Shown: positions 44,698 to 62,323, counted from the first letter of the stretch. The stretch is 64,000 bases of DNA from Gammaproteobacteria bacterium (GCA_963662545.2 CAXXLL010000003.1:2496001-2560000); one strand, 5' to 3'. Program-made: numbers and translations. The notes: generated by a model from the letters alone, not told the origin.

Positions 44698-45991
44698 ATG
44701 GCGAAAAAACGTTCCAGCTTCATCCGTGAGGAATACGCAATACTCGGCGGTCTGTCGAAAGTTCTCAAGACCAAACAAAGCAACGTGTATCAGCTGAGGA
44801 TGAGGGTTTCCAACGAAAAAAAATACCTCCGAGAAACGCTGAAGACCCGCGATCTGGATACCGCTTTAGAACGCACCGAAAAAAGAACACTAGAAATCTA
44901 CGCAAACATCAAAGCCGGCAAGAAGATCTTCGGTGTCCATCTGGGAGAACTGGTTGGCGAGTATCTCGAATATCGACAAGAGGACGTAGCGGTCGGAAAC
45001 ATCACGTCAGGACGGCTGGTCACGGTGTCTTCCCAACTAAAACATCTTCTCAAGTTTAAGGGCGACCATCTGCGTATCGGCGAGTTAGAGAAAAACTCTT
45101 GCTTTGACTATGCGAATTGGCGGCGAGGGTTAACGCCGTCTGTAAAAGACGTAACCATCCGAAACGAGACCGCAACGATCAACGCGTTAATGAGGTTCGC
45201 TTACCGCAAAGGGTATTCGCATTTCGAAACGTTTGAGTTCCGAAAACTTCGTATTCGAACGGAAGAGACAGATCGTCGAGACACGCTCACGCTAGACGAG
45301 TACGACAACCTCGTTCGGTATCTAAGAACTTGGTGTTCGAAGAAGGCAACGGGAAAGGACAAGGTAGAACGTCTAAAACGGCTTTTGGTCCGAGACTGCA
45401 TTTTGATTGCGACCGACACGATGTTGCGCGTCGGTGAACTGTGGCAGCTACGCTGGGCAGACGTGCTCGGGTACGAATCGATCGGCAACGAGCAGAATCG
45501 TGTCGACCTCGTAAAGATAAAGGTTCGTGCAGAAACGGCTAAGAATAGGAAGTCCCGGACCGTTTTGAGTCGAGGCGGCAAGCACCTGAAACGACTATTT
45601 CAGAGAACACAGTTCCGTGACGACGACCATTATATTTTCGCGATAGCTAACGGACGTAAACGGGCTCCTAAAGAGATCTGGTACAACGCATGGAAAGAAC
45701 TAATGTCAGGAATCGGTATCGATTACAAATCACGAAACCTGACGTGGTATTCGCTACGGCACTTCGGCATAACCTGTAGGCTCCGCGCGGGCGCTAGGGT
45801 ATTCGCTACGGCACTTCGGCATAACCTGTAGGCTCCGCGCGGGCGCTAGCGTTTTCGACGTCTCAAAACTCGCGGGGACTTCCGTGAGTTTCATCGATAC
45901 GCACTACGGTCATTTCGACGACGCCATGGCAAGAGAGGTCGCATTAAAGAACTTTCGATACGGGAAAGACGGAATCGCGATCAAAGATTGA
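44698..45991 (+). CDS. Tyrosine recombinase/integrase, frameshifted by 52-bp tandem duplication
   Basis: R(VGEL), K(NRK), YSLRH; without the 45798-45849 duplicate it continues LAGTS..HYGH to TGA at 45991. Confidence 0.88.
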
Positions 45992-46210
45992 GCGCTTCTA
46001 TTGCAAATACTTGCCGTTGGGCAACAAGGTTATCGTGATCTGTAAAGACTTGGACTCGTTCTTACAGATCGGCATCCCGGATTCAACGTTACCTGACAAG
46101 TGTCGTTGCATAAACACGGTACTGTGCACTCGGACTTAACGAGTTTTAAGGTCCGCTATGCCGCCGTAAGCAGCCACGTCATGCTGCACTGCAGGAGTCC
46201 GCTATCGACC

Positions 46211-46370
46211 CAGACTGTGTGAAAACTCAATAATACGACGTCGAAAGTAAAAAATTCCCCACCAGCATAGTAGTTAAGCACCATGAAAAGGGATCAGCAC
46301 ATCGCATTAATACACTTCCGAGTGTCGGTTCCCCACTTTTGAAAAACGCAAATAGTTTTCACACAGTCTG
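46211..46370. mobile_element. MITE (IS1182/IS5-like ends) in repeat core
   Basis: CAGACTGTGTGAAAACT...AGTTTTCACACAGTCTG flanked by GACC direct repeats. Confidence 0.8.
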
Positions 46371-46444
46371 GACCCTGAGCAGACATCACCCGTAGTTAGG
46401 CCGAGGAGGGAGAGCGGCAGTCAAGAGGTCGTGTTGAGCGCTTG

Positions 46445-46942
46445 TCAGACATCGCCATCGTCGTTTAGCTCCCTATCTACAGCTACAACGAATTCAGGTG
46501 AAATACCGGAGACGACCGGGCTTGCTTTTTGCCACTCCTGAATAGCCAAGGGATTCTCTTTGAGAACGCCAACCAAATGTATGACGCTTATTGATTCTTC
46601 GTATCCAGCCGTTCCGTGCACTACGCTTCTGTATGATGTTGCCGCTGCAAGGAATAAATCCTGAAAGCAGATAGAAAACAGAATCTGTTCATCTTCGGAC
46701 AGTTCTTCATCGTGTCGCGCGCGGACCATGATCTTTGCCAGTTCGGGAGTACCCAGTACGGCGCGGCGCCAGTCCGAATACATTCCTACCGCAGTGGCTG
46801 TTCCTTGTTGGAACGCATGTTCAGATGTTTCTTCTACGGCTTTTCGCGTCAATCGCGTCTGAATGGATAAGTAAATTAGAGTAATGATGATCGCTATTGC
46901 GCCAACAACCTCCGCAATAGTTCCTAACGCATCCCAGTTCAT
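46445..46942 (-). CDS. 'MNW' family single-TM protein 1
   Basis: MNWDALGTIAEVVGAIAIIITLIYLSIQTR. Confidence 0.85.
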   Translation of the reverse strand: MNWDALGTIAEVVGAIAIIITLIYLSIQTRLTRKAVEETSEHAFQQGTATAVGMYSDWRRAVLGTPELAKIMVRARHDEELSEDEQILFSICFQDLFLAAATSYRSVVHGTAGYEESISVIHLVGVLKENPLAIQEWQKASPVVSGISPEFVVAVDRELNDDGDV

Positions 46943-46957
46943 CTGTTCTCTCGTGAT

Positions 46958-47051
46958 GCCTAACGCTAAGTTAACCTGCGCTTGACGGCGGGCGACCGGA
47001 GCGGAAGCGAAGGAAGGGGGCGGTCACGTCAGGTTGCTCCGTTTGTTAGGC
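46958..47051 (-). repeat. attC-like site
   Basis: GCCTAAC..AACCTG.CG..TGAC.GC / GC.GTCACG.CAGGTT..GTTAGGC; complementary R boxes, long imperfect palindrome between two genes. Confidence 0.8.
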
Positions 47052-47082
47052 GGATGTTGCACTTCAAATGTGAATCTAAGCG

Positions 47083-47553
47083 TCAACGTATTTGGTAATC
47101 TGCGACTTCTAAGCCGTTAACAAACTGCTGAAACTTGGTGTCAAAATTTTTGCTTCTCAACGACCACGCTCGCTGGAGTCCTGGATGACTATAGATGGTC
47201 GAGTAATACTTAACCATTGCATCCCAACTACGAGCGTCAAGCGTTCATTCGTCGTGTTGTATATATGCTTCCTCCCAGGCCCGAAATACGCCTCCGGCAA
47301 GGATTAAGAACCGTGTTGTCTCCGCGTCGGTTAGGTCGTCGTAGCTATCAACCGAACGAGCCCATATTTCTGACATATCCTCGGTCGCGAATTTCGCAGT
47401 CACTTCGCGGAAGCCCACGGAGATGTCGTGCATTGCCGCGAGACGCGATTCCTTGTTCTGATTTCGTATCTGAGTAGCGAGATAGATAAGCGATACGATT
47501 ACTCCTCCGGCACCGAGTATTTCCGCAATTGCTCCTACAGCATCCCAATTCAT
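47083..47553 (-). pseudogene. 'MNW' family protein 2 with one in-frame TGA (47245-47247)
   Basis: MNWDAVGAIAEILGA..; continues in frame after stop TLDARSW..HPG..W..FDTKFQQFV. Confidence 0.8.
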
Positions 47554-47609
47554 AACTCAAATCCCCCGTTCTCGCCTTTTTTGCAGGATATCTGAGAAAA
47601 CTGGAACCG

Positions 47610-47760
47610 TGAATGACTGGAACTGGCCGACTGCCGTCGTCATCAGTTAACACGTCAGTGAACGCAACACCACGACCGCTTCCGAGCGCATTGCAGACGT
47701 AACCGAGAGCAGTGCTGCACTGCCGCGATCAGGCCGGAAACGACCCACAGCAGCCATCAG
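47610..47760 (-). repeat. Multipartite intergenic repeat (other copies ~46150, 48620, 50780, 52515 on minus; 55769, 56591, 59677, 59952, 61839 on plus)
   Basis: Consensus GGTCGTCAGCGGCC.AATCGCGGCAGTGCAGCA..GTCTGCAAT..CTCG.AAGCGGTCG. Confidence 0.85.
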
Positions 47761-47821
47761 CGCCAGCGAAGGAGGGGCGCTGTCAAGCGGGTTGGCTGCA
47801 GCGCCTTGGTATGCGGAACTT

Positions 47822-48300
47822 TCATCGATTTAATCCGAACATTAAAAAGACGAAGCTAAGGAATGCAATAGAAACCATCAAAATGAGGATGCATTGGAAT
47901 ACGAACGCTGAGTACGGCTCCATATAACCAAGCACAATCGCGCCTTCCACGACGACTGCCGTCATTCCGAGCAGGGCGAAAAGTCGCATGATCGAACGTT
48001 GGGGCTCGGGCAGCAGTTCAAGAAATAAACCGGAACGCAGCATAAACGGTATTGACACAACCCAAGCTATAACATGAGCAACAATTAGTACGCGGAATGA
48101 CCACTTCCACATATCGCCTTCATTCTCGGTAATAAGGGCGACAGTTCCCGGGATGAAGGAAGCGAACACTGCAAAAGCAGTAACGACTAAGAGCGTTGCT
48201 GCAAGCGCGACCTCCGGTCCGGTCAAGCTTTTGCCGCCGCGTAATTGTATAACCCCGATTATCCCGGTAAATCCCATAAGCGTTATCGCGATCTGCAAAC
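47822..48300 (-). CDS. Multi-TM membrane protein (paralog of 58170), 5' end disrupted
   Basis: QIAITLMGFTGIIG.IQ.RGG, FASFIP, W.WS.RVL. Confidence 0.75.
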
Positions 48301-48726
48301 GAGAACTCCTCGTCAGACGCAACGCGGCGCGGTTACGACGGCCGCGCTCGCGGTCCAATGCGATCGGTTAGTTAATGGAACATTCCTTAAGCCGGCAGTG
48401 AAGCCGTGGATCAGGGAGTTTTCGAGGCCACAGAGGGTCTCATGCCGTCATCGCTAAAGTCTGAAAGTCTGCTGCAATCGCGGGGTCCATCGCTTCCGCC
48501 TAACAATAAATGGTCATCAAATTGACGCGATTAATTGTGCCATTGTGACGCATAATTATCGGTGCAAACATAACTGTGGTTGCGGTAACCGGGGATGGCT
48601 TTTTTTGCCGAGAGCCGAAGCGCTCGGCTAACGTTCCGATGAACGCAACTCCGTGACTGCTTACGGGGGTACTGCAGACGTAATCTAGGGCGGTGCTGCA
48701 CTGCCGCGATTAGGCCGCTGACGACC

Positions 48727-49591
48727 CAGAGTGTGTGAAAACTCGGAATGGGGAATCACGTCGAGAACTCCTCGTCAGACGCAACGCGGCGCGGTTACGA
48801 TCCAATGCGATCGGGTTAATGGAACATAGAACGGCCCCAGAAGCCGGCAGTGAAGCCGTGGATCAGGGAGTTTTCGAGGCCACAGAGGGTCTCATGCCGT
48901 CATCGCGATGAGCGTAGCGAGTAGATTCATCACGCGTTTCATGTTGTGCACGTGCAGACTCATTTCCGTACCAACGTGTTTCAGCGTGCGCATCTGGAAC
49001 GAACCCATCACGATAGAGTCTCTCCATTCCGTCTGCGGCTATTGTCCGTTTTCGGGCAGCGGGGACACGCCGAACATGGTGCTTGCCTTTCTCCAGCGAG
49101 GCCAGCAAAGATTGAAGTCGCCTAGTAAAGAGGTTATAGCGCACGCCAGCTAATTAGTCAACTCCTTCTTATCCAGGTTGCGTTCGACAGTTGCGCCCGG
49201 TCGACCTACGGACATGTGATCAATTTTTTCGGATGCCGCTGCCATTCACCCCCGTATCCACGCTGGCAAACATTTTCTTCGAAGTTGCTCTGTGCAATTT
49301 GCTTGGGAAACCCGTAATCATTGTTAAACGGTTGCTAGAGGTTGCGGCGTTCCCCGCTGCCCGATCAAATCTAAATGCACAACGGTTCGATACCGGCGCG
49401 CGGGTTCGGTGAGGCGCGATTGGGACGTGAATTTTTAAATCGGAAAATGCGAGTTCTCCGTCAGACTTCCACGTTCGCGCCTCCCGTTCCGCGAGATTGA
49501 ACCCGGTTCAGGTGGGTTATGTACGTTGGATCAACGACTCCCCAGGACCGAAAGAGTGATCTTATCTGATGCAGAGTTTTCACACACTCTG
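48727..49591. mobile_element. TIR-bounded element (IS1182-like ends) in repeat core; interior scrambled
   Basis: CAGAGTGTGTGAAAACTC...GAGTTTTCACACACTCTG flanked by GACC direct repeats. Confidence 0.7.
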
Positions 49592-49739
49592 GACCCATAG
49601 CGAACGTCCGATAGAGTCCATTCCGTCGCGGCTATTGTCCGTTTTCACATGGTGGAGCGAGGCCAGAAAGATTTCCTAGTAAAGGCTAATTAAGGTTGCG
49701 GGTTCGGGACGACAATTTTTTCGGAATTCACCCCCGTAT

Positions 49740-50173
49740 CCACGCTGGCAAACATTTTCTTCGAAGTTGCTCTGTGCAATTTGCTTGGGAAACCCGTAAT
49801 CATTGTTAAATCGGAAAATGCGAGTTCTCCGTCAGACTTCGTTCGCACGGAGTGGGTTATGTACGGATCCGGGAAGCAAAAGCAGCTTCGAAAGGATTAT
49901 TCAGACTCTCTTTCTTCCATTGTGAGCCTAGCGAAGTATTACGAAACTCTTGGTGATATTGCAGCGGAAGCCGAGGATGTGGATCTTGAGCTAGCATTCG
50001 AACGATACCGCCAATCTTTTCTAATTGACGGGCGTAAACGCGTAAAAAGCAAAATAGATCACATCGCAAAGCGAGCGGGCAACCCTGAAGATACAGCTGC
50101 GAACCTTAGACCCGCACGAACACGATTCCGGACCTCAACAATCGAGTTCACGAAGTTTCTCCAGAACACCTAA
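49740..50173 (+). pseudogene. C-terminal part of nucleoside-deoxyribosyltransferase/TIR-like protein
   Basis: NIFFEVALCNLLGKPVIIVK...PSDF motif; 5' end missing. Confidence 0.5.
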
Positions 50174-50222
50174 CGCCAGGGTGGTCCATTTGTTAGGCGG
50201 CTGTTACATTTCACTTGGAAAT

Positions 50223-50678
50223 CTAAGCATCATTTAGCAGGTTTTCGATATAGGCTCTCATCGTACTCGACACATCTTCTCGAGCGCTCGTTCCCCACCA
50301 TTCTTGAACTCCTTTTGTGCCAAACAAAAACCGGAGGTTTTTGTCGCAGCCCGCTAAGATAGCCGGTGTTGTAGCCTCCGGCGCACCGACAAGCAGTTCA
50401 TAAACCATCATGCGATCTAACATCCAGTATGAGAAAGAAATTTTCTCTTCTTCTGTAAGCTGTTCGAAGCTTTCCTGACCTCTTTTGAGAACGCCAGCCA
50501 TATACTCACTTAATGGTCCTACGTTGGATTGCGACATTCGGTCACTCAGTGCAGCAAAAGTCTGTGCCTTGACCGCGCTAGTATTCTGGCGAATTTGTAG
50601 GGCCAAGAATATTAGCGATGCAACAACGGCGAGTGCGCCAATTAGATCGGCCCAATCTGCTATGGTGCCAAAATCCAT
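50223..50678 (-). CDS. 'MNW' family protein 3
   Basis: MDFGTIADWADLIGALAVVASLIFLALQIRQNT..G.ESFEQL..GVQEWW. Confidence 0.85.
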   Translation of the reverse strand: MDFGTIADWADLIGALAVVASLIFLALQIRQNTSAVKAQTFAALSDRMSQSNVGPLSEYMAGVLKRGQESFEQLTEEEKISFSYWMLDRMMVYELLVGAPEATTPAILAGCDKNLRFLFGTKGVQEWWGTSAREDVSSTMRAYIENLLNDA

Positions 50679-51060
50679 TGAATAGTCTCCTTAATGCCTA
50701 AAAAAGCGTAGCGAACGCACCGCATTAATAATAGAGGTGCTCTAGCGACCGCCTCAGGGGTGGCTACCAAGCCTGCGGGATGTCCGCACCTGGCCGACTG
50801 CTGCCGTACCCTCTCGACTCGATGCCTGAAGCTACTCGACGACCGCTATTGAGGGTACTGCAGACGTAATCTAGAACCGTGCTGCACTGCCGCGATTAGG
50901 CCGCTGACGGGGAACAGTCAGCGGCAGGCTGTCTCAAATGGCGTGAGCTGTTATCCGCGTAACTACCGGCAGGTTTATTTCCAGCTCGAAACACGAGATC
51001 ATCTTCGCCTAGCCGCTCCCAGTCGCGGCCGTCAATAAAACAACACGAGAGAACTGCACC

Positions 51061-51855
51061 ATGCCCCACATCAATCGCGACGGCGTCAAAGTCTATTACG
51101 AGAGTTTCGGCCAGGGTCTGCCCATCGTCTTCCTGCACCCGTGGAGTACCAACCGGTATATCTGGACGAATCAGTTGCTCGAGTTCGCGCGCAACCACCA
51201 ATGCATAGTGGTCGATCACCGCGGCCACGGCCTGTCCGACAAACCGGCCGAAGGTTACGGCATCGGCGAGATGGCAGCGGACGTGGTCGCCATTCTCGAT
51301 GACGCCGGGATCGACCGTGCGGTACTGGTGGGCAATTCGATCGGCGGCATGGTCGCCATGCAGACGAGCCTCGATACACCGGAACGCGTTATCGGCAATC
51401 TCATTGTAAGCAGCGCTACTAATTTCGGGGCGGATGCGCCGCCGGAAATGGCGGAAGCGATGCAGAAAGACTGGCGCGGTATGTTCAGCGGCCTACTCAA
51501 ATCCGCCGTCTCCGCTAAATCCAAGGCCGAACGACCGGAGATCCTCACGTATATGGAAGGCTGCTTCCGCGTCGACGACAATTTCACTGAAGGCGTGTTC
51601 TGGGCCAGCGTGGCCGATCCGGAGGGCGTGTTCAACTGGAACATCTCCGACCGGCTCAAGGACATCAAGCAGCCCACCCTGATCATCGCCGGCGAGGAAG
51701 ACGGCGCGACCACCCCGGCCCATAATCAATTCCTGGCCGACAACATTCCCGGCGCGGAAATCAAGATGTACAAGGACGTCGCGCACTTTTGCCAGTTGGA
51801 AAAGCCGACTGTCTTCAACGAAGACTTGCGAAACTTCATCGCCAAGGTCGCCTGA
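51061..51855 (+). CDS. Alpha/beta fold hydrolase
   Basis: DHRGHGLS, GNSIGG, GEED, AHFCQLEKP. Confidence 0.9.
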   Translation: MPHINRDGVKVYYESFGQGLPIVFLHPWSTNRYIWTNQLLEFARNHQCIVVDHRGHGLSDKPAEGYGIGEMAADVVAILDDAGIDRAVLVGNSIGGMVAMQTSLDTPERVIGNLIVSSATNFGADAPPEMAEAMQKDWRGMFSGLLKSAVSAKSKAERPEILTYMEGCFRVDDNFTEGVFWASVADPEGVFNWNISDRLKDIKQPTLIIAGEEDGATTPAHNQFLADNIPGAEIKMYKDVAHFCQLEKPTVFNEDLRNFIAKVA

Positions 51856-52084
51856 ATCCACCCTGTCTTAACCCGCGACTTCAGCCCGGACTTACCGGCG
51901 CCGAGGTCGCAAGCGGATCAGGTGGGCGGACACCGAGACTGATTAAGATCGAACGGTGCCGCATTTGATTAGAACCTATCCTCCCTGAATTTCAGTTCCG
52001 GATTGCGGAGCCTATTCCGACACGTCCGCGTGCGAACAGCAGCTATACCGTTTCAATCAACGAAACGTGCTGTCATTCCTGACA

Positions 52085-52500
52085 CCGAGGTGCCGGTCCG
52101 TCAATGGGTCGTGACCTTCCCGCATGCCTTGCGGTTTCTCTTCGCCAGCCGCCCAGGGGTCATGGGCCGGGTGTTGGCGATCGTCTACCGCACGCTGGCG
52201 ACACATCAGCGACGCAAGATGGGATATACGCACCGCCAGCACCGGCGCGGTCACCCTCATCCAACGCTTCGGCAGCGCGCTCAACGTCAATATCCACTTT
52301 CACATCCTGATGCTGGATGGTGTGTATGTCGCCACCGACAACCGACTCAGCATCAAGCGCGTGAAGGCACCCGACAAGGCCGAGCTCGAAGCCCTCGTGC
52401 GTACCATCAGCGAGCGCGTGGGTCGCCACCTCGAACGCGAGGGTCTGCTGGTTCGCGATCTGGACACGAGCTACCTCGCGCTCGAACCCCACGATGACGC
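52085..52500 (+). pseudogene. IS91 transposase internal fragment
   Basis: [15 protein letters not shown]; [21 protein letters not shown]. Confidence 0.85.
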
Positions 52501-53045
52501 AAAAAAACCTGGGCATGGCCGCTCATGGCCGACAGCCGTGGTCCTCGGTTAACACGTCACCGAACACTGCCGCACGACCGCTTATGAGGTAACTCCAGAC
52601 ATAATCCTTACCAGTGCTGCATTGCCGCGATAAGGCCGCTGAGCAGGGGGACGCTGACGCGCAATACAACGTGGGCAACATGTACCACAAAGGCAAAAGA
52701 GTTATGAGGGTCTACCTTCGGAATTAGCAGGTAGCGGCACCGGTCAGTGCCACTGATGTCCGATGCTGGAATGTGAGAACTGACCCTTTTGGTGACCTTT
52801 TGGATGACCGTGCACGCCCACGAACGCATGGAGGCCATCATCGACGCTGGCATCGGTGAGATCTCGCTGGTAAGCATCATGCCGGGCCTGCCGCAGGATA
52901 AGATACTTGATTCTTTGCGGCTCTTCGCCGCCGAGGTGATGCCGCAGTATGCGGAACCGGCGGTGAGTAAACTTCAACAGACCGGTTAGTCGCGATGCCG
53001 GGAGCTGAAGCGTGCGCCATTCGCTCGCATTCTTAGGAGGTAGCC

Positions 53046-53822
53046 ATGGACTTTACCGATAAGCGCATTGTGATCACCGGCTCGTCACGTGGCATCGGCC
53101 GAGCGGCGGCCGAAGTACTACTGGCGGCCGGCGCGACGGTCACGGTCAACGGCCGAACTGAGGCGTCGACGCGTGACGGGATCGCGGCAATGGGCGGTGG
53201 TGACCGATTGATCGCGGCGCCGGGCGATGTGGCGACCGTGGCCGGCTGCGAGGCGATCATCGGCGTCGCAGCCGAGGCCATGGGCGGGATCGACGTCCTT
53301 GTAAACGCCGCCGGCATTGCTACGTTCATCACTCTCGAAGACAGTACGGAGGCGCTGTGGGATGCGACCGTGAATACCAACTTGAAAGGCACGTTCTTCT
53401 GCTGTCGAGCGGCGCTACCGCATTTGACCGCATCCAAGGGCAACATCGTCAACGTCGGATCGGACGCGGGATTGATCGGGGAGGCGGGGCTTGCGGCTTA
53501 CGGCGCATCCAAGGGCGGCGTTATACAACTCACCCGCGCACTCGCCCTGGAGCTGGCGCCCGACATTCGGGTCAACTGTGTGTGCCCGGGCAATGTCGAC
53601 ACCGACATGCTGCGCCGCGACTACATCGATCAGGCCGACGACCCGGCCGAGGCGGAAGCCGAAATCATCGCTTCTGCGCCCTTGCAACGCATCGCTGAGC
53701 CGCTAGAGATCGGTAAGGCGATTGCCTACTTTGCGAGCGACGACGCGGTGTTCGCAACGGGATCGATCCTGTCGATCGACGGTGGCACAACCGCGTGTAA
53801 CAACGCAACGGGGGACGAATAG
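53046..53822 (+). CDS. SDR-family NAD(P)-dependent oxidoreductase
   Basis: TGSSRGIG, NAAG, YGASK, VCPG.VDT; AGGAGG RBS; luciferase-like monooxygenase fragments on both sides (52800-52989, 53838-54030). Confidence 0.92.
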   Translation: MDFTDKRIVITGSSRGIGRAAAEVLLAAGATVTVNGRTEASTRDGIAAMGGGDRLIAAPGDVATVAGCEAIIGVAAEAMGGIDVLVNAAGIATFITLEDSTEALWDATVNTNLKGTFFCCRAALPHLTASKGNIVNVGSDAGLIGEAGLAAYGASKGGVIQLTRALALELAPDIRVNCVCPGNVDTDMLRRDYIDQADDPAEAEAEIIASAPLQRIAEPLEIGKAIAYFASDDAVFATGSILSIDGGTTACNNATGDE

Positions 53823-54268
53823 GTTCTAAACCGATCATGATCCCGTTTTAAGTGCTCGACCTCGCGCCGATTGTCGCGGGGAGCGATGCGGCGTAGGCCT
53901 TTCGCAACTCGGTCGGTCTCGCGCAGCGCGCCGAACGCTGGGGATATCAGCGCTACTGGTTCGCCCAGCACCACAATATGCCCGGTATCGCCAGTTCCGC
54001 CACGGCGGTGGTGATCGGCTATCGCCCGCGGATAGCCCGTGGATAAGGTCAGTTCTCACATTCCGACATCAGCGCCATCTGCGCAGTGTAGGAATGTGAG
54101 AACTGACCCTTTTGGTCTTCTTTTGGTCTTTCGCAGACCCAAAGCGGAAGTTCGGGGCTAAAGGTGGCGAATTTTTATACTCACGTCATTAGCTCAAATA
54201 AATCTGTCCCTGAAGGCTCCCCACGAATTGAAGGAGAATTCACATAAAAAATAGCCATTTAGAAAAAT

Positions 54269-55653
54269 GGGTCTACGCGGATTCATGTGGGTAAATTCTG
54301 AATTAGACCAAGTGTAAACCATTGAAATCATGTAGACATTCAGAGATTTCGTATGGGGTGAAAGTGGTTTCATTTTGTGGGTAGGCTAAGGCCATGAAGA
54401 ATCCCAAGTCGATCCGAGCGCTGTTTGCGTTCCCTGGTTTTACCGCCGCATCGAAATTGGTGGGCATGTTTGGTGATCGGTATGCCCGTGTGATCCAACT
54501 CAAGAGGCGAAAAAAACAGCGATCTGTTCTCACTGTGCTCACCGGTGCCGCGGGCGTTACGACAAGAAGGTGCTGCGAGTACGAGACCTGTCAGTTGCCG
54601 GATGGCGAATCTACCTGGAGTTCGAACGCTGGCGTGTCAGTTGCCGGAGGTGCGGCGGCGTGCAGGTAGAACATCTTGACTGGCTGGCAAAGAACCCTCG
54701 CTATACGCAGCGCTTTGCCATGCAGGTGGGCAAGCTGTGCCGGGACATGCCGAACCAGGCTGTCGCCGAGAGGGAACGCCTGCACCACAGCACGGTGAAA
54801 GACCTCGATAAGCTGTACATGCAAAAGCAGGTTGAGCTGGCGGGCATGCCAGCACCCCGGGCCATCGGTATTGATGAGATCTCCATCCGCAAAGGACATA
54901 ACTACCGGGTCATCGTCAGTGACCTGGATCGGGGGCGTCCTATCTGGGTCGGTGGTGAAGGTCGCAAAGAGGCTGACATCGACCTGTTTTTCCAGGCATT
55001 GGGCGAGAACAAGAGCGCTCGCATCGAACTGGCGGCGATGGACATGTGGAAGCCGTTCCGTAACTCGGTCATGAACAACGCACCGCAGGCGCGGATCATC
55101 TATGACAAGTTCCATATCATGCGCCACCTCTCAAAGGCTCTCGATGAAGTCCGGCGCCGTGAATACAAACGTCTCCGCGGCAAGGACAGGAGTTACATCA
55201 AAGGCCAGCGATATACCTTGCTCTCGCGACGCGAGAACCTGAATCTGGATGGCAGACGAGCCCTGAAAAAACTGCTCCAGGCCAACCGGCGTCTGAACAC
55301 CGCCTACGTCCTCAAGGAAACCTTCGGCCAACTCTGGGACTACCGTACCGAGCGCGGCGCGCGTGCCTTTTTCGAGCGCTGGAAGGACAGTCTGAAATGG
55401 CAGCGATTGGCGCCGTATCGCAAGTTTGCTGAGCTGATTGAATCCCATTGGGATGGCATTGCTTCCTATTGTGATGCTAAGAATAAAGTCAGTCTTGGAT
55501 TGGTCGAAGGGGTCAACAACAAAATCCGGGTCCTGCAACGACGCGCCTATGGCTATCGTGATGAGGAATTCCTCAAACTGAAAATCATTGCGGCATTTCT
55601 TCCGCCACTACCCAGAAATGCCAATATCAACCCACACGTTTCCGCGTAGACCC
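54269..55653 (+). mobile_element. ISL3-family element; transposase 54394-55649 split by a frameshift at an A7 run (~54510)
   Basis: IRs GGGTCTACGCGGA / TCCGCGTAGACCC; IGIDE, MDMWKPF, YDKFH, EGVNNKI..RRAYGYRD. Confidence 0.92.
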
Positions 55654-55972
55654 AAACAATTTTGGAAGCTACGCGAGCATGTTTTCTCGAAAGATTTCCG
55701 AGAATTTGTAGCCTCGGTGGAACCGGGCGAGTATCTATTAAAGTGATCCTTGTTTGAGCATTAGCAGGATGTCCGGAAAGGGTCGTCAGCGGCCTAATCG
55801 CCGCAGCGCAGCACTGATTAGCGTTTTGTCTCCTATGCGCTCGGAAGTGGTCGTCCGGTAGCGTTCAGCGTCACGAGCATAATGAGCGGCGGCGGTCGGC
55901 CGATAGCGGACACCCTAAGGTCAGCGCCATCCGATATTCTTATAGTCCAGGAACCAAATAGGGGATCGGGCC

Positions 55973-56501
55973 ATGAACTGGGATGCTATCGGTGCTTTGA
56001 GTGAACTGCTCGGTGCAACAGCAGTTGTTGTGTCAATAATCTATCTCGCACTACAGGTGAGACAAAATTCGAGCCATGTCCGCAGTAGCGGGTATCAGAT
56101 GGCGGCTCAATCGGCAAATCACTTTTTGGAAAGTCTATCGGCGCACCCTGAGGCGTTGAAGGTTTTCCACGCGGCTCAGGAGTCCTATGACGGCCTAGAC
56201 GACGACGATCAACTCGTAGCTCGAACAGTATTCTTGCAACTGTTCATCTATTACGAAGCTTTGTTTTACCAGTATGAAGACCGCGTCGTGGATCTCGATA
56301 TCTGGGAGGTTTTACCAGTATGAAGACCGCGTCGTGGATCTCGATATCTGGGAGGGGCGAAGGAAGATGATGCTCAACCTCCTACAAATGCCAGGCGTAG
56401 CGTCATGGTGGGGAACCTGGCGACCAATCTTTGGCGCGAAATTCCAGTCGTACGTCGCGGAGAACATGGAATCACCGAGTGATTTGCATTTGACATTTTG
56501 A
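55973..56501 (+). pseudogene. 'MNW' family protein 4, frameshifted by 46-bp tandem duplication
   Basis: MNWDAIGALSELLGA..; 56263-56308 repeated at 56309-56354; PGVASWW..FQSYV in the second frame. Confidence 0.8.
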
Positions 56502-56751
56502 GCAGATCGGCATATCTGTTCGGGAAACGACGATCGTTAGTCGGCTATCCGACTCGACCTCGCATGCACCTTCGTCCCCCGCCAGCTAGCAATGACGGTA
56601 TTGGGTCGGCAGCGGCCTTATCGCGGCAGTGCAACGCTGTTCAAGATTAGGTCTGCAATCCTCTCGAAAGCGGACTCGGGCGGCTTGGAAGCCACGTACG
56701 TCACGGTCGCCGCAGCACCCCTATTATTTATGCTGTGCGTTCGCTACAGTT

Positions 56752-56851
56752 TCCTAACTTCTCAGTGGAATCAAATGGAACGGCATACAAACCGCGCGCC
56801 CGTATGTTCATTAATAACGGGGCAATATGGCCCGTACATTAGCTGTTAGGC
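56752..56851 (+). repeat. Degenerate attC-like site
   Basis: CCTAAC ... GTTAGGC immediately before gene 56868; internal pairing weak. Confidence 0.5.
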
Positions 56852-56867
56852 GGCAAGGGAACCTTCG

Positions 56868-57338
56868 ATGAATTGGGAAGCGGTTGGAGTAATTGTAGAA
56901 ACAGTCGGAACGATTGTTGTCCTTGTTACCCTAATTTACCTGTCAATGCAGATTCGACTAGCGCGTGAAGAATCGCAAGTACAGAGCACATATTCTTCGG
57001 TAAATCTATGGGCTAATTGGCGTTCACACTTAATCAACAACCCTGATATTAGTGAGCTTATAGAGAAAGCGAATGAAGGCCAGGATCTATCTAAAGCGGA
57101 AAAACTTCGAATTTCGACTTTTATGGACGAATTCATATTTACGTCCTATGCCTCCCACGCAACAAGTCAGAAAGGCAACCCACTATATACACGCGATGCA
57201 GAGGTCGAATATTTGGTCGGTTTTCTGGAAGCGAATCCAGGGTTGGAATCTCACTGGGAAAGGCTTCGGGATTATGTTGACGCGTGGGACCCCGAATTTT
57301 CGAAGAAGATAAGAATCCGGCGGGACGAGGTTGACTAA
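56868..57338 (+). CDS. 'MNW' family protein 5
   Basis: MNWEAVGVIVETVGTIVVLVTLIYLSMQIR; closest by eye to 46445 (WR..P.., NP...W....PEF). Confidence 0.85.
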   Translation: MNWEAVGVIVETVGTIVVLVTLIYLSMQIRLAREESQVQSTYSSVNLWANWRSHLINNPDISELIEKANEGQDLSKAEKLRISTFMDEFIFTSYASHATSQKGNPLYTRDAEVEYLVGFLEANPGLESHWERLRDYVDAWDPEFSKKIRIRRDEVD

Positions 57339-57608
57339 CGTGACATGGTCAGAATATCGGTTGGTTTCTCCGGGTGTGCGGCGCAGCCGCGTAGATTCAA
57401 AGTCGAAGTGCAACAACGCGAGCAAGACAGGATGTCCCAGACTTCGTTAAACACCCCGTCACCTATAAGTCGTTGGAGCGGTCGTGTTACAGCGGGCTTT
57501 TCTTCCGCGGCTGTCGCATTATCGCTTCAGAAAAGCGCACTGTAACGCGCCGCTCAACTTTGCACTATGCCGCAATCGTTCCATCTAGATTCTTACAGGA
57601 ACAAAACC

Positions 57609-58050
57609 ATGAGAAGAACCCCGCTAATCATTAAACCGGAAACTTATCAATCTCCATTGAATGTCGTAGGTACGAACGTAACAGTGCTCGCTTCAAAACA
57701 AGACACAAAGGGACAGGAATTCACGTATCAGTCCGGAGACAAAGGCATGGGACCTCCGCCTCATAGCCACGACTGGGATGAATCATTTTTCGTGATTAAA
57801 GGAAGCGTTGAAATCACCTGTGATGGAAGGACCGAACTGTGCACACCAGGCACACTTTTTCGTGCCGGGTGGAACGATACATGCGTTCAAATACGGCCCC
57901 GATGGCGGCGAAATGCTGGAAATAACAGGCTCCGGGAGCATAGCTGCTCAAATGTTCACGGCGCTCGACAATGAAGTTCCGCCAGGTCCGCCGAACATAG
58001 AAAAGATCGTAGAAGTAATGAACAGAAATGGGGTCACTGTGCATTCATAA
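57609..58050 (+). pseudogene. Cupin-domain protein, frameshift at T-run ~57856
   Basis: GPPPHSHDWDESF..G; VPGGTIHAF in the next frame. Confidence 0.75.
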
Positions 58051-58158
58051 TGCAGCATAACGGGTCGTTGGAGGCGGACGCTTGACAGTGGCATTCCCTA
58101 CGCCGCCGCTCCGTTCCGTCGCCGTCGCCGTCGAGTGCGGCTCATGGGAGCGTAAGGT
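58034..58158 (+). repeat. Degenerate attC-like site (another at ~58687-58780)
   Basis: GCATAAC right after stop codon, CGCTTGAC box, GC-rich imperfect palindrome. Confidence 0.5.
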
Positions 58159-58169
58159 GAACTAGAGAT

Positions 58170-58679
58170 ATGGCTGTACCGGAAGACTTCTATGTCATTG
58201 CTCAGATCGCGGTCACCTTAATGGGATTTACCGGGATCGTCGGTGCTCTTCAGACCCGCGGAGGCGCAGTACTCGACGAACGAGAGAAGTTCCATATCGT
58301 TAATCTGCTAACGACTTCGACGCTTGTACTTTTTCTTGCCTTTGTTCCGACATGGCTGCAGTCGCTTCCTGGCAGTGACGAGAACCTTTGGGCGTGGTCA
58401 ATTCGAGTGCTCTTGGCCATACACATTTGCGCTTGGATAATTGCTATCCCAACATTCCAACGTGGGAGCATTTTCTTCAATCAGAAATACCGAGCATTTG
58501 AGCGGATGGCTGGATTGACAGTCGCAGTCCTTGGCGTTGTTGCAGTAGGTGCCGAACTTCTAATCGTGGGGGGGCATTACACCGAGTATTCGGTCTTTCT
58601 CTACGAAGGGGTGCTGTTATTGTTTGTGGCTGTATCGGTGTTTAATTTTCTTTCGCTCCTGATAAAGCCGTCGAGATGA
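58170..58679 (+). CDS. Multi-TM membrane protein (paralog of 47822)
   Basis: AQIAVTLMGFTGIVGALQTRGG; ~5 hydrophobic segments. Confidence 0.8.
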   Translation: MAVPEDFYVIAQIAVTLMGFTGIVGALQTRGGAVLDEREKFHIVNLLTTSTLVLFLAFVPTWLQSLPGSDENLWAWSIRVLLAIHICAWIIAIPTFQRGSIFFNQKYRAFERMAGLTVAVLGVVAVGAELLIVGGHYTEYSVFLYEGVLLLFVAVSVFNFLSLLIKPSR

Positions 58680-58799
58680 ACCATTCGCCATAAAAGGCGT
58701 TCAACCTGACGCTTGACCGCGCGCTTCCTGCGCTGCCGCTTCGATAAGCCTTTATCGAGCACCGGTCAGCTTGAACGTTCGTGAAGTCTGCTATAGGGT

Positions 58800-59676
58800 G
58801 TGCGCCGTGCAAAGGCGGCGTTCTTCAGTGGGTGCAAGTCCCACCCGGCAACTGTCGCTCCAGCCGGAAGCAATCGGAGCAGTCATGGAGGTAACAAGAT
58901 GGCTGAAGCCTTCGGTGTAGAGGGTCACTAGGTGACTTGGCGAGTGTGCAGGCCGTAAGGTGAGTGAACGCTGAGCAAGCCTCGAAAAGGACGATGCACG
59001 TGCCGACCGGTCAACCCCTATCGGGAAGGCTGAAAGGGCTGGGGAAGCGAGCGATGAGCGCACCCAGTCGGCGTGCCGGGGTAGTGGCGATGGCATGTAC
59101 ACAGAGGAGAACGCGCGCAACACGGGAAGCCCGATGGCGTGGTCGGTCGTGGCGATCAACCGGAGACCGGTGACGGTCAGAGAGGGCGCTATGGGGTGGC
59201 GGAGAGGCCCGTAGTACTGAGGAAGCCGGGTAATGCTGGTGGAGGGAAGGGGCCTTAGTTCAAGACGGGCACTGAAAGCGGCAAAGCACAGGAGATTGGG
59301 GCAACCCTAGGCAACTCCGGTAAGGTGCGGGCGCGGTGGAAGGCGTCACATGTTGAAGCGAAGGAAGAACCCGGATTGCGATCTGGGAAGCGAATGCCCA
59401 CCCAAGTGGTGGCATTGGCGGTTGTGTGCAGAACGCTCGGTTCGTGCACGCCGGGATACACGGCCCGGTGTGGTGGGTCGGGTGAACTGCGGATGACCTT
59501 TCGTGTGCCAAGGCATGAGTCTTGTCCGAGAGCCGGATGCGGTAGTTCCGCCTGTCCGGTTCGATGAGGAGGATGTGGAAACGGAGTGATGGTCCGGCTA
59601 TTGAGGCACCGCCAGACGAAAGGGGCGGCAACAGATTGGCTGAACCTTAGACCACCGCGCCACATCCTTACTCTAC
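58800..59676 (+). ncRNA. Group II intron with RT ORF internally deleted
   Basis: 5' GTGCG; domain V GAGCCGGATGCGGTAGTTCCGCCTGTCCGGTTC; domain VI ending CTTACTCTAC; only a short RT N-terminal remnant (EAKEEPG). Confidence 0.88.
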
Positions 59677-59793
59677 CGTCAGCGGCCTAATCGCGGCAGC
59701 GCACACTAATTAGCGTTTTGTCTGCAATGCGCTCGTAAGCGGTCGTCCCGCAGCTTTCAGTGGAGCGTTAGCTGAGCAGGGCGGGTCTCGGCC

Positions 59794-59951
59794 TATTCTG
59801 TTGAAAAAGTCCGATTCGCCGTCGGTCGCGACGTGTGCAGAAAAACCGACCGCGTAGGATCGCCTGTAAGCGACGATCGGCACTCCGGGAATGGTTTAGC
59901 GACCCCCAAATATATCGAAATCGTATGCGGTACGACTTTTTCAACACAATA
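59794..59951. mobile_element. MITE (TGTTGAAAAA ends), related to 61690
   Basis: TATTCTGTTGAAAAAGTC...GACTTTTTCAACACAATA. Confidence 0.75.
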
Positions 59952-60240
59952 GTCCGTCAGCGGCCGAATCGCGGCGGTGCAGCACCGTTAGAGTTTACGT
60001 CTGCAATCCCCTCGTAAGCGGTCGTCGAGATGCTTCAAGCGTCGAGTTGAGAGAGCACCAATAAATCCACGTCTATCACTCCTTTAATCTCCTGCCGTCT
60101 GATTAGCAGGAGAAGGGTTAAACGTGGGTCAGTTTTGGGTGCAAATACCCGGGGCTAGTGGGTCACTTTTGGATGCAAATCTACAGATTAAAGGGTTCTA
60201 CGTGCCGCGCTAATGTCCCCGCAGCTTCACCAACCTCCGG

Positions 60241-60786
60241 TCACAATGCACAAACGCGCGGTTCCCAAACCGCGAGGAAACGCTCGAAGCCAATCCCAAC
60301 GGCAATGACATGGGCCAACTCAACGATTTCGGCGTCATTGAATTCGTGGCGCAAAAGCTCGAAGAAATCGTCATCGAGTCCTTCGGGTTCAATGCCGAGT
60401 TTCTCTGCAAACTTCAAGGCCAGCTTTTCACGACGCGTCAAACATTCGCTCACCTCATAAGTCCCAATCGCCGCGATCTTTTGTTTGGTTAGCTGCGGGA
60501 CGGGCGGCCGTGGGGTGGCCAAGCGTGGCACTGATGACTTCGCGATATACGCGGAGCAATCGTTGTTCTGCGCGATCTTCATTCGCACTAACTCTTTCAA
60601 GTCCCGCTCGAGTTTGCCGTTCTCCAACATATTGACGTAGGCAGCGAAAATGGGTTCAAACACTTCCTGCTTATGCGCAAAGATTTTAAGACCGTTGGCG
60701 TAATTTGAATCGAACTCGAACTTATCGACCAGCGATGCCATAGCCGGGCTTAGTTTGGTTTTATCCAAGGGGGTTGGTGCAGTCAT
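60241..60786 (-). CDS. AhpD/carboxymuconolactone decarboxylase-like protein (single motif Cys)
   Basis: LKELVRMKIAQNNDCSAY, REKLALKFAE, F.DAEIVEL. Confidence 0.85.
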   Translation of the reverse strand: MTAPTPLDKTKLSPAMASLVDKFEFDSNYANGLKIFAHKQEVFEPIFAAYVNMLENGKLERDLKELVRMKIAQNNDCSAYIAKSSVPRLATPRPPVPQLTKQKIAAIGTYEVSECLTRREKLALKFAEKLGIEPEGLDDDFFELLRHEFNDAEIVELAHVIAVGIGFERFLAVWEPRVCAL

Positions 60787-60841
60787 GACAGTCGGTCCTT
60801 TGTGTTGGAGACTCGTTGGAGAAATACCCGTTCTTTGCTGT

Positions 60842-61363
60842 TCATGCTTCTTCAGGCTTGAAGACTGAAAGCAGGCGGCCCCACCCGATACATACGCTGA
60901 TCACAATTGAAAGTTCGACAATCTCCGGCTCCGAAAACTCTTCGCCCAGCAGTGCAAAGAAATTGTCATCGATTGCCCGGTGTTCGATCCCCATCTTTTC
61001 CGCGAACTTTAGCGCGAGCTTTTCACGCCGCGTTAAGATCTCGCTAACTTCGAAATTTTCGATTTCTTTGATTTTTTCTTCCGTCAAACCCTTATCCATC
61101 ACCGATGGATATCGCAACTTTCGTCAGGTGAAGCAGTCGTTGTTATAAGCGATTTTGATGCGCATCATCTCCTTCAGCCGGGAGTCGACCAGGCCGCCTT
61201 CAAACATGTCGACGTAGGCCGTCCACATCGGTTCGACGAACTCCTGACTGTGCGCAAAGACCTTAAGACCCGCGTGGTATCCGGGATCAAACTTGACGCG
61301 ATCCACCAACTCCGCCATGCCGGGTGTCAGATATCGCTCTTCTATGGGTTCCAACCGTGCCAT
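60842..61363 (-). CDS. AhpD-like probable selenoprotein (CxxU)
   Basis: NNDCFT-TGA-RKLRYP in one frame; aligns along its length with 60241 paralog; hairpin 61093-61111. Confidence 0.8.
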
Positions 61364-61529
61364 GAATTCCTTCCAGGGGCCGTTAAGGCACCAATTTGTC
61401 AGGTGGCCGTATCCGAGTTGTGTATTTCTCGGAACGGAGAATGTGTCTCCTTATATAGCCTCTGGGTGGTGGATTTGGCAACTTGTTTAAGGCCAATGCT
61501 CATGCCGATTAGCCTAGATCCGCGAGCGA

Positions 61530-61628
61530 TGCATATTCCAGCCCAAGCCGATCACTCATTCCGGTGCAAGCCGATCACCCATTCCAGCTGATGCCGATCA
61601 CCGATTCCGGCTGATGCCGATCACTTTT
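61530..61628 (+). mobile_element. IS21-family end remnant (tandem GCCGATCAC repeats); another IS21-like end at 60120-60185
   Basis: TGCATATTCC then four ~23-bp units. Confidence 0.65.
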
Positions 61629-61689
61629 GAGTACGTGGGAGGATTTTGTGCCAGGTCTTGCCTTTTGCCATCAATGTCGGCTTCGGGTC

Positions 61690-61838
61690 TATTGTGTTGA
61701 AAAACTCCCTCAACAGATGGTTTAGCCAAATTTAGGGGGTGCTCAAACCATTACCTGAAGTCCGATCGTCGCTTACGCGCGATCCTGTGAGGTCCAATTT
61801 CTCGGAGCAATGGGCGAACCGAGTTTTTCAACAGAATA
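61690..61838. mobile_element. MITE in repeat core, GGTC direct repeats
   Basis: GGTC|TATTGTGTTGAAAAACTC...GAGTTTTTCAACAGAATA|GGTC. Confidence 0.8.
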
Positions 61839-61993
61839 GGTCGTCAGCGGCCGAATCGCGGCAGTGCAGCAATGCTAGAGGTTAGGTCTGCAATTCCCTC
61901 GTAAGCGGTCGTTTGGCTTCCGAAAGCGTCATTGATTGAACTGACTTCGGCTCGCGGCCATAAGGTAAACTGCAAGCCCGCGAGGTCTAATCA

Positions 61994-62323
61994 TTGGTCA
62001 ACTGCCGTAAATGCGGAGAGAGGTTGCCGTTCCGGAGTTTTCTGTTTTCTCCGGGTCTGTCTGTGGCGGATCTGAAATGCCCTTTCTGCCATCTCGTGAT
62101 GCGTGCTGGTCGGCAGAGTAAACAAACGATCTGGCTAGGAATACTGGCTGGCGGCATAGTCAGCGCGGTTGGTGCGCATTGGGCCTACTACGTGCAGGGT
62201 TGGAATCGCGGTTCCAGTGCCGGAGTTGTATTGGCCATTGCGATTATCGTTGGCGTGGCGCTGACATGTTATTCGTGGATCAAAGACGACTACGATGCGA
62301 ATACGAACTCAGCCCGCGAATAA
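61994..62323 (+). CDS. Small Zn-ribbon + 2-TM hypothetical protein
   Basis: CRKC..CPFC followed by two hydrophobic segments. Confidence 0.55.
   Translation: MVNCRKCGERLPFRSFLFSPGLSVADLKCPFCHLVMRAGRQSKQTIWLGILAGGIVSAVGAHWAYYVQGWNRGSSAGVVLAIAIIVGVALTCYSWIKDDYDANTNSARE

Follow-up and report, generated by a model that had tools for sequence, protein, structure and literature searches.

Layout of the locus

We analyzed a stretch of 64,000 nucleotides from a sponge-associated Gammaproteobacteria bacterium (GCA_963662545.2, CAXXLL010000003.1:2496001-2560000; hereafter, the window), which is segment C3:2496001-2560000 of a 5.58-Mb assembly of a genome that is 96.85% complete. Between 46.1 and 62 kb, the window contains ten copies of a repeat of ~150 nt (hereafter, the array repeat), with short gene blocks (cassettes) between them, and with mobile elements inside the repeats or directly at their borders, namely, elements with terminal inverted repeats (TIRs), including MITEs (miniature inverted-repeat transposable elements), a group II intron without an open reading frame (ORF), and a gene fragment of an insertion sequence (IS) of the IS91 family (Table 1). 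Four copies and one degenerate copy are on the minus strand (46.1-52.6 kb), and five copies are on the plus strand (55.8-62 kb). We consider it very probable that the array repeat is restricted to one genus and that the motifs at its two ends are targeted, at a central tetramer, by IS1182-family elements and their MITEs, by the group II intron, and by an IS91 element.

Table 1. Repeat copies and associated features in the array region of the window (a point marks features without an assigned strand)
Feature	Coordinates	Strand	Basis or remark
Degenerate array repeat copy	46115-46210	-	by eye; missed by nhmmer
Family A MITE, 160 bp, 17-bp TIRs, GACC duplicated on both sides	46211-46370	.	read and script
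Classical attC-like site (RCCTAAC...GTTAGGC) inside the array, outside the repeat family	46959-47050	+	nhmmer attC profile, 62.3 bits
Array repeat	47625-47747	-	107.4 bits
Array repeat, L end occupied by deleted IS	48607-48728	-	profile match
IS1182-type element of family A with internal deletion, 865 bp, flanked by duplicated GACC	48727-49591	.	intact copies 1,685 bp
Array repeat	50792-50910	-	106.1 bits
IS91-family (Y2) transposase gene fragment, adjoins next repeat	52003-52497	+	PF04986 positions 1-85 at 52244-52483
Array repeat, first of the minus-oriented run	52527-52642	-	101.4 bits
Array repeat, first of the plus-oriented run	55779-55901	+	98.5 bits
Array repeat	56602-56720	+	88.7 bits
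ORF-less group II intron, 877 nt, at GGGT^CG of L end, same orientation as repeat	58800-59676	+	
Array repeat, 3' exon of the intron; first bases at 58796-58799	59676-59793	+	
Family B MITE, 158 bp, without target duplication, between R end (GGCC) and next L end (GTCC)	59794-59951	.	
Array repeat	59950-60061	+	104.7 bits
Family B MITE, 149 bp, GGTC duplicated on both sides	61690-61838	.	
Array repeat	61837-61959	+	103.6 bits

The array repeat: distribution and anatomy

A profile built from nine window copies was searched against the whole assembly with nhmmer. There were 118 matches, of which 111 fall into 12 clusters of at least three copies; the orientation is uniform in 10 of the 12 clusters, and the largest cluster consists of 33 copies over 93 kb. 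BLAST searches detected the repeat in both of the two other genomes of the same genus; across the family (16 other genera) and the class (12 more genomes), the searches detected none. The public sequencing runs that contain the stretch are labelled as sponge metagenome or carry coded organisms. At Rfam gathering thresholds, only the intron and one tRNA were matched in the window, and the array repeat belongs to no Rfam family.

The consensus of the repeat ends was derived from 35 of the 83 full-length copies, namely, those without an element motif in the flanks. The 5' (L) end is ATGTCCGCTTTG-GGTC-GTCAGCGGCC, and the 3' (R) end is GGCGGCTGTC-GGCC-AAGAGCGGACAT. Both ends represent a single motif of ~24-28 bp, with the general form G[GT]CYGC-TTTN-GGYC-NNNA-GCNGMC, which L and R carry imperfectly and in opposite orientation; each end is partly symmetric about its tetramer and resembles two inverted arms around a 10-bp spacer. 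The ~95 nt between L and R are the best conserved part of the repeat and hold a second GGTCGTC; truncated repeats start or stop at the L or R tetramers or at this internal GGTCGTC. The degenerate window copy has its L end at 46207-46210, where it abuts the family A MITE, and its flank is similar to the variant GGTCGA.TCCGGACTC of other occupied sites.

An earlier, sequence-only reading of the window had proposed that the repeat is a single-stranded or structured site. A conserved fold found no support, either from the consensus or from single folds. The consensus fold of 35 copies (RNAalifold) amounts to only -3.2 and -0.9 kcal/mol on the two strands. Six whole-repeat DNA folds had z-scores from -1.55 to +0.36, and for eight 40-nt L/R sites of the window z was above -1 in seven and -2.25 in one, so that 13 of the 14 single folds of whole repeats and isolated ends are above -2. 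None of the four promoter-like and five terminator-like sites predicted at 55700-62100 falls in a repeat, and their counts do not exceed those of shuffled sequences. A crude comparison of the strand of the repeat with that of the longest ORF (24 same, 31 opposite) is uninformative because the longest-ORF criterion is unreliable in this G+C-rich DNA.

Elements with terminal inverted repeats

Genome-wide pairing of TIRs identified 41 complete elements of family A: 14 of ~1,685 bp, 25 of 154-160 bp, one of 211 bp, and the 865-bp element of the window. All 41 are flanked by a 4-bp duplication, which is GGTC/GACC at an L end in 39 cases and GGCC at an R end in two. A detected repeat lies within 40 nt of 35 elements, and the other six have degenerate repeat-like flanks by eye. 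Because all 41 elements share the tetramer duplication and 35 lie near a detected repeat, the targeting by family A is beyond chance. Insertion takes place in either orientation; for example, two copies of one duplicated cassette hold the IS oppositely oriented at the same site. In the same-genus genomes, MITEs are found at the same GGCC/GGTC positions, and most L ends are free.

Family B consists of eight paired elements, seven of 149-158 bp and one of 1,622 bp, and one solo end. A GGTC/GACC duplication within repeats flanks three of the eight paired elements, and the 1,622-bp element, a candidate autonomous form, sits at ATCC with a repeat-like flank. The remaining four have unlike flanks, in which an L end is combined with an R end, including the element at 59794. 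Such chimeric flanks without duplication are therefore most simply accounted for by recombination between two MITE copies with deletion of the sequence between them, and the MITE at 59794-59951 looks like a product of this kind of event. The earlier reading had placed this element in a GGCC sub-unit, which holds for its left flank only, as there is no target duplication and the right flank is GTCC; its statement that the elements at 46211, 48727 and 61690 each duplicate GGTC/GACC was confirmed. The idea of a shared landing pad was also borne out, with high specificity: all 41 family A elements are at the tetramer, all three introns described below are at GGGT^CG, and the flanks of all genomic copies yielded no insertions at unrelated sites, which is the observation that would speak against it.

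The transposases score above the cut-off (270) of the IS1182 equivalog model NF033551, with 466.5 bits for family A and 413.3 bits for family B, and also match the Pfam families DUF772, DDE_Tnp_1 and DDE_Tnp_1_6. The best named plasmid relatives, at 66% identity, are labelled "ISPa7 family". Together with TIRs of 16-17 bp and a short target duplication, these matches assign the TIR elements, as judged by sequence, to the IS1182 family, as ISPa7-like members. The short elements have no transposase gene and have the TIR core and the duplication in common with an autonomous element in the genome, as expected of MITEs. When the 35 family A and five family B elements identified by script are combined with three intron-bearing ends, which the script had scored as empty, 43 of 108 L ends are occupied.

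Beside the deleted IS of the window, there are patchwork copies of IS-internal sequence with many small deletions (49596-49880 versus 49010-49540, and 48296-48452 versus 48760-48900). Contigs of public runs show small insertions in this region too, and contigs in two of these runs skip the 157-bp segment 48296-48452.

The group II intron

The intron starts with GTGCG and ends with CTAC, and its flanks, ...ATAGGGT | CGTCAGCGGCC, rejoin to the 5' end of the repeat; thus, the earlier claim that removal of 58800-59676 restores this end after GGGT^ was re-derived both from the sequence and by script. Domain 1 matches RF02003 at 58826-58963 with 100.8 bits, compared to a cut-off of 49, and domains 5-6 match RF00029 with 36.1 bits, which is under the cut-off of 40 (E 3.4e-5), in an alignment that ends exactly at 59676. 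The element accordingly has the features of a group II intron RNA: it begins with GUGYG at the 5' end, domain 1 is recognized, and domains 5-6 run up to a 3' boundary in AY.

The genome holds three intron copies that are 99.8-100% identical, two of 877 nt and one without the first 369 nt. GGGT stands directly before each of the two complete copies, CG[TA].AGC[CG]GCC comes after all three, and the orientation is that of the sense strand of the repeat. The two complete copies have different exons and are therefore separate insertions. No RVT_1 match was found in the genome, given its 96.85% completeness, and the three copies themselves contain no reverse transcriptase (RT). Since the intron has at most 877 nt and no RT, whereas relatives of ~2 kb elsewhere carry one, the window copy is a deletion derivative. 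The autonomous partners that the earlier reading had called for were found in part: the IS is present as 14 copies of ~1,685 bp, and an RT was encountered only in the metagenome relatives of the intron. Among 30 related genomes, no intron copy was found beyond two short weak matches.

Two candidates for exon-binding site 1 (EBS1) were considered. ACCCUA at intron nt 505-510 pairs at 6 of 6 positions with the window exon and at 4 of 6 with that of the other copy. The second candidate, ACCCAAG at nt 601-607, was discarded for lack of covariation with the exon: relatives with GGC^ and GGGT^ exons keep the same hairpin.

In three DNA runs, the summed contig depth over 58541-59674 is ~20 times that of the neighbouring cassettes, and in one RNA-run contig the 3' end of the intron continues into another exon, which leads on to a family B TIR; therefore, the intron clade is more abundant in the samples than in the assembly. 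An unspliced exon-intron junction of the copy on contig C2 is present in one RNA-run contig, and no spliced exon junction was seen in the assembled contigs of the public runs.

The IS91-family element

Six IS91-family copies lie in, or just upstream of, the arrays and are oriented as the repeats. The transposase (Y2 HUH) scores 423.1 bits with NF033538, compared to a cut-off of 125. Each copy is preceded by a gene for a tyrosine recombinase with a Phage_integrase domain and a SAM_4 N-domain, without the IntI insert, which identifies the element as a member of the IS91 family with an accessory tyrosine recombinase. With this recombinase, none of the named models reaches its cut-off (181.8 of 220 for the XerA-like model and 174.1 of 265 for the integron integrase model); recombinases of this kind have been described, in the available extract of 10.1101/542381, as those most closely related to IntI. 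The left junction of two copies reads GGCCA| and falls within the R end. At the right ends that were examined, the element is succeeded by |..AGCGGACAT-like sequence, corresponding to the outer arm of R.

On a Halomonas chromosome (G031:C1:1850001-1870000), an IS91 element with an IntI-like recombinase is located directly upstream of an integron integrase gene, at the place expected for attI and the first cassette.

The same motif in other genomes

Relatives of the IS, with 63-76% identity, were collected at eighty loci in named genomes, most of them from a wide range of Proteobacteria and some from other phyla, and both TIRs could be placed at 60 of these loci. A 4-bp duplication was found in 54 of the 60: GGCC in 29, GACC in 12, GGTC in 7 and other tetramers in 6. 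The rebuilt empty sites have the profile G[GT]CYGC-TTTN-GGYC-NNNA-GCNGMC; of the 54 sites, 44 have G at -10, 50 have C at -8, 46 have G at -6, 46 have C at +9 and 48 have G at +11. The body of the array repeat is absent next to these relatives, except for one weak match (E 0.037) in the 80 loci.

For the intron, the last 17 bases were found on at least 120 metagenome stretches, of which 80 loci were read. Of the 77 3' exons that could be read, 72 have C at +1, 67 have G at +2, 52 have G at +9 and 51 have C at +11. In 14 of the 17 introns with both ends, the 5' exon ends in GGY after an AATGTC.GC-like arm. Of these 17 complete introns, 14 have 444-940 nt and three have ~2 kb, and one ~2-kb copy was shown to encode RVT_1 and GIIM. 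The contigs that carry these introns contain three matches of the motif in 192,504 bases, compared to one for the reversed pattern; thus, the motif is not arrayed there.

Since the relatives of the IS and of the intron use the motif in hosts without the repeat, the elements specialize on the motif, not on the array repeat, which goes against the earlier notion of parasites dedicated to this repeat. The target of the IS clade is thus also that of the intron clade, and both appear to act within the same tetramer.

The motif is also encountered outside these sets. A Pseudomonas chromosome contains 13 matches of the motif, compared to one for the control, clustered in two regions. In a class 1 integron plasmid (locus L238 of G032:C2, positions 3034-3057 of that locus), a motif-like site, GTCCGCTGAT-GGCC-GGCAGCAGCC, is flanked on one side by the end of intI and on the other by a terminal repeat that we take to be of the Tn402 type. 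ISPa7 has been reported to interrupt the 5' conserved segment (5'-CS) of the class 1 integron (extract of PMC4824433), which is the segment with this motif-like site.

A model of insertion and the observations that weigh against it

The following model builds on where the elements sit, on their duplications and family assignments, and on the finding that relatives in other bacteria use the motif; its insertion chemistry is taken from what is known of the respective families. The array repeat divides long, mostly co-oriented arrays into short gene blocks, and its ends are probably recombination-prone cassette boundaries. The ISPa7-like elements (family A of 1,685 bp, the family B candidate of 1,622 bp, and the MITEs of 149-160 bp) would transpose by a DDE mechanism into GGYC, in either orientation, and the 4-bp stagger of the cut would give rise to the GGTC or GGCC duplication. 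The intron would retrohome between Y and C of the same tetramer, on the sense strand of the repeat; its 877-nt copies would need an RT supplied in trans, and the genome appears to be without one. The IS91 element with the IntI-like tyrosine recombinase sits just 3' of the R tetramer. The target would be the double-stranded motif, which is likely to be recognized by its sequence rather than as a folded strand.

Several observations weigh against this model. Among the IS relatives, six of the 60 have no duplication and six of the 54 duplications are other tetramers, and one named ISPa7 copy, on a P. aeruginosa plasmid, has neither a duplication nor the motif. Three of the 17 metagenome 5' exons do not end in GGY, and the partner through which the intron would base-pair with its exon was not found among the candidates examined. 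The IS91 junction was seen directly in the repeat for only two of the six copies. The dyad symmetry of the motif is weak in the window copies, and seven of the eight L/R sites have folds no better than those of shuffled sequences; a hairpin requirement such as that reported for IS1272 would, if it holds for the IS family, not be visibly satisfied at these sites. It should also be noted that redundancy of the assembly inflates the counts by about three elements: an overlap of contig ends counts one MITE twice, and a block of more than 6 kb that is 100% identical carries two IS copies.

Alternative explanations of the repeat

The break points of duplicated cassettes bear on the nature of the repeat itself. 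Cassettes that are duplicated within the genome, or shared with sister species at 91-96% identity, have different neighbours, and their homology stops at the L tetramer (four downstream ends), at the R tetramer (two), at the internal GGTCGTC (four) or in mid-repeat (one); the break is at the L tetramer in all four downstream cassette ends that reach a repeat. A whole duplicated cassette has most of the repeat 5' of the block with which it travels. Most break points fall at a fixed heptamer, and most arrays have a single orientation, which suggests site-specific exchange. Thus, it is possible, as a tentative proposal, that the array repeat is the recombination site of a cassette system independent of integrons, in which a recombinase exchanges strands at GGTCGTC and thereby moves gene blocks between arrays; the mobile elements might then be exploiting a site that is kept conserved by the cell or by another element. 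The runs of up to 33 repeats in the same orientation over 93 kb, the recurrence of cassettes with different neighbours and homology ending at the L or R tetramer or the internal GGTCGTC, the truncated repeats that start or stop at those points, and the resemblance of L and R each to two inverted arms with a 10-bp spacer are all consistent with this proposal.

So is a similar arrangement on a Halomonas chromosome (G031:C1:1214001-1232000, ~11.5-13.7 kb), where an 80-nt repeat with the same L and R ends lies between small genes, including defence genes. It separates SnoaL-like and Cap15-like genes, downstream of NERD-like and Shedu-like genes and beside an ISPa7-like IS.

Other observations argue against an exchange site. 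No recombinase is tied to the arrays: the IS91-linked enzyme, which is in or upstream of the arrays here, was not found in two same-genus genomes with arrays (89% and 95% complete, fragmented), and because these assemblies are incomplete, its candidacy as the array enzyme is weakened, not excluded. One same-genus genome, in an incomplete assembly, has only two tyrosine recombinase genes. One upstream break is in mid-repeat, as homologous recombination would give. Finally, the assembled contigs of the public runs revealed no empty MITE site, no clean cassette-less joint and no circular forms; one joint, 47728->48717, has one side of 30 letters only and may be an artefact of the repeat. A broader version of the proposal, in which the repeat is the exchange site of a non-integron system, the GGYC motif is a widespread "public" class of sites in Proteobacteria, and three lineages have specialized on it independently (ISPa7-like IS1182 elements, group II introns that spread largely as ORF-less 0.9-kb derivatives, and IS91 with an IntI-like recombinase), is likewise speculative, and we favour it no more than as a possibility worth pursuing.

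Rather doubtful is the explanation of the array repeat as a passive element, belonging to the host or selfish, similar to repetitive extragenic palindromic sequences (REPs) or their composite forms (bacterial interspersed mosaic elements, BIMEs, and REP doublets forming hairpins, REPINs), in which inverted palindromic units surround a conserved linker and the IS use the palindromes as hot spots. The architecture agrees with it, as two inverted, imperfectly palindromic units of ~26 nt surround a conserved core of ~95 nt; REP-targeting IS from five families have been documented (extract of PMC1525189), and targeting of palindromes has been reported within the IS1182 family (extract of PMC4923244). 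However, the copies are not dispersed, since 111 of 118 are in 12 clusters, 10 of them of a single orientation. Judged by coordinates, none of the seven matches to Y1 transposases, which are similar to REP-associated tyrosine transposases (RAYTs), adjoins a repeat, except for a 78-aa fragment inside a large array. The units fold no better than shuffles, and the homology of cassettes breaks at the centres of the units, not outside them.

It is highly improbable that the array repeat is an unusual integron attC site and the elements are counterparts of the group IIC-attC introns and IS1111-attC elements, a parallel that the earlier reading had drawn and that failed on both counts, as the repeat is not attC and the TIR elements are of the IS1182 family. 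The layout is array-like, a few classical attC remnants are present inside the repeat arrays, and the genome has two integron integrases above the TIGR02249 cut-off (C2:996723 and C3:1527239). Nevertheless, both intI genes adjoin arrays of classical attC sites, a family distinct from the array repeat that has a length of ~110 nt and RYYYAAC...GTTRRRY ends and also forms several separate arrays (the classical arrays include C2:983-996 kb, which adjoins the intI at C2:996723, and C3:1917-1950 kb), and the nearest copies of the array repeat are at least 65 kb away from the intI genes. The boxes RYYYAAC and GTTRRRY are absent from the repeat, the ends of which are ...TTTG-GGTC-GTCAGC and ...CTGTC-GGCC-AAGAGC, and a GTT-containing box in mid-repeat is present in five of the nine window copies. 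An attC-like hairpin with variable sequence was not found; the core sequence is the most conserved part, and there is no conserved fold. No integron integrase over the cut-off was detected in the two same-genus genomes with arrays. The intron is on the sense strand, with the orientation of the repeat, whereas IIC-attC introns are reported on the bottom strand of attC, opposite to cassette transcription (extract of PMC3001079). Both attC-linked lineages were thus rejected as assignments: the intron does not target attC, and the transposases are of the IS1182 family and the elements have TIRs. As separate observations, single classical attC sites are located inside the repeat arrays of the window at 46959-47050(+) and 57477-57567(-), and the 20-kb neighbourhood of the Halomonas integron integrase holds no L/R-type repeats.

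The notion that the targeting is an artefact of segmental duplication, with one ancestral insertion copied along with its repeat, is hardly credible: there are blocks duplicated with 100% identity and overlaps of contig ends, but the flanks beyond the motif differ between copies, which refutes it for most of them, different families and opposite orientations are found at homologous sites, the two complete introns have different exons, and the same site use is seen in sister species and in unrelated genomes.

Other features of the window

Five cassettes, at 46445-46942(-), 47245-47553(-), 50223-50678(-), 55973-56323(+) and 56868-57338(+), code for small paralogous proteins. The N-terminus is MNW[DE]A.G-like in four of them and MDFGT in one, followed by a hydrophobic stretch and a ..IYL..Q.R motif; those that were submitted matched no Pfam family. 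Contigs in three public runs skip two window segments, 45746-45797 (52 bp) and 56263-56308 (46 bp), which are tandem duplications that break the frame of an integrase gene (44698-45990) and the ORF at 55973. These and the 157-bp segment beside the deleted IS are either assembly artefacts or strain variants.

The integrase gene (plus strand) is a unique gene of the P4 type; it ends beside the last, degenerate repeat of the minus-strand run, lies 8 kb from an 88-nt tRNA with a long arm at 36414-36501(-), and, as judged for 44698-45831, has no paralogue near other arrays. An ISL3-family transposase gene (54394-55649; NF033550, 292.8 bits), with very high summed depth in the public runs, is located between the oppositely oriented runs of repeats. 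An ISCR-like transposase of 500 aa at 2999-4501(-) has 695.6 bits on the ISCR clade Ia model, under its cut-off of 925.

Significance and comparison with known systems

The literature that we consulted contains no statement of the motif as a target of an ISPa7-like IS or of a group II intron, although supplementary tables may hold such targets. As far as this search goes, three results are new: an explicit target with a fixed GGYC duplication for the ISPa7-like clade; the sharing of this target, to the base, with a clade of mainly ORF-less group II introns; and a clustered, genus-specific repeat that presents the motif twice per unit. The first provides a testable target rule for an IS1182 clade that includes ISPa7, an element of clinical Pseudomonas integron contexts. 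An intron clade with the identical target represents a rare convergent choice of site that is amenable to simple plasmid assays. In environmental DNA, this clade appears to be represented mostly by the ORF-less form of ~0.9 kb (14 of the 17 complete introns), which bears on non-autonomous spread. The arrays may be a cassette system that is invisible to integron finders; if so, a sizeable part of the flexible genome of a symbiont genus, and perhaps small arrays including defence genes in other bacteria, would be organized by a new recombination system.

With the IS1182 family (ISPa7-like elements, IS1272 and ISPse1), the TIR elements share the match to the transposase model, a length of ~1.6-1.7 kb, TIRs of 16-17 bp and a 4-bp duplication, which is also tabulated for ISPse1 (extract of PMC3281130). 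IS1272 and some other members of the family target hairpins or palindromes (extracts of PMC4923244 and PMC5678879). The targets of IS1272 are reported to be hairpins without a primary-sequence consensus and without duplication, whereas the elements analyzed here have a sequence consensus and a fixed GGYC duplication.

The IS that target REPs and BIMEs (IS1397, ISKpn1, IS621, ISPa11 and ISPpu9/10) are similarly near-exclusive to a repeated palindromic unit, with ratios of up to 100% (extract of PMC1525189). They belong to the IS3, IS110, IS4, IS256 and IS5 families and use dispersed REPs, whereas here IS1182-family elements use a clustered, mostly co-oriented repeat, the motif of which additionally serves a group II intron.

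Integron cassette arrays and clusters of attC sites lacking integron integrases (CALINs) resemble the present arrays in having repeats of 100-150 nt, mostly in one orientation, with one to three small genes between them, most without a Pfam match, and in the recurrence of cassettes in different contexts with breaks inside the repeat. Unlike those arrays, the present ones lack R''/R' boxes, a conserved fold and an adjacent intI; the core of the repeat is conserved and not variable, and most of the repeat lies 5' of a duplicated cassette block. The IS91 element has the same gene pair as the known IS91 elements with an IntI-like recombinase; here, it sits at the R end, in or just upstream of the arrays.

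The group IIC-attC introns and IS1111-attC elements are similar in that two unrelated kinds of elements specialize on the boundary repeat of a cassette array (extract of PMC3001079). The differences are that the target here is not attC, that the intron is inserted on the sense strand, at the centre of the motif, and not after a bottom-strand stem-loop, and that the IS is of another family. The array case works like the known site-specific IS on repeated palindromes, the hairpin- or palindrome-targeting IS1182 members and the attC specialists, yet it belongs to no attC-linked group.

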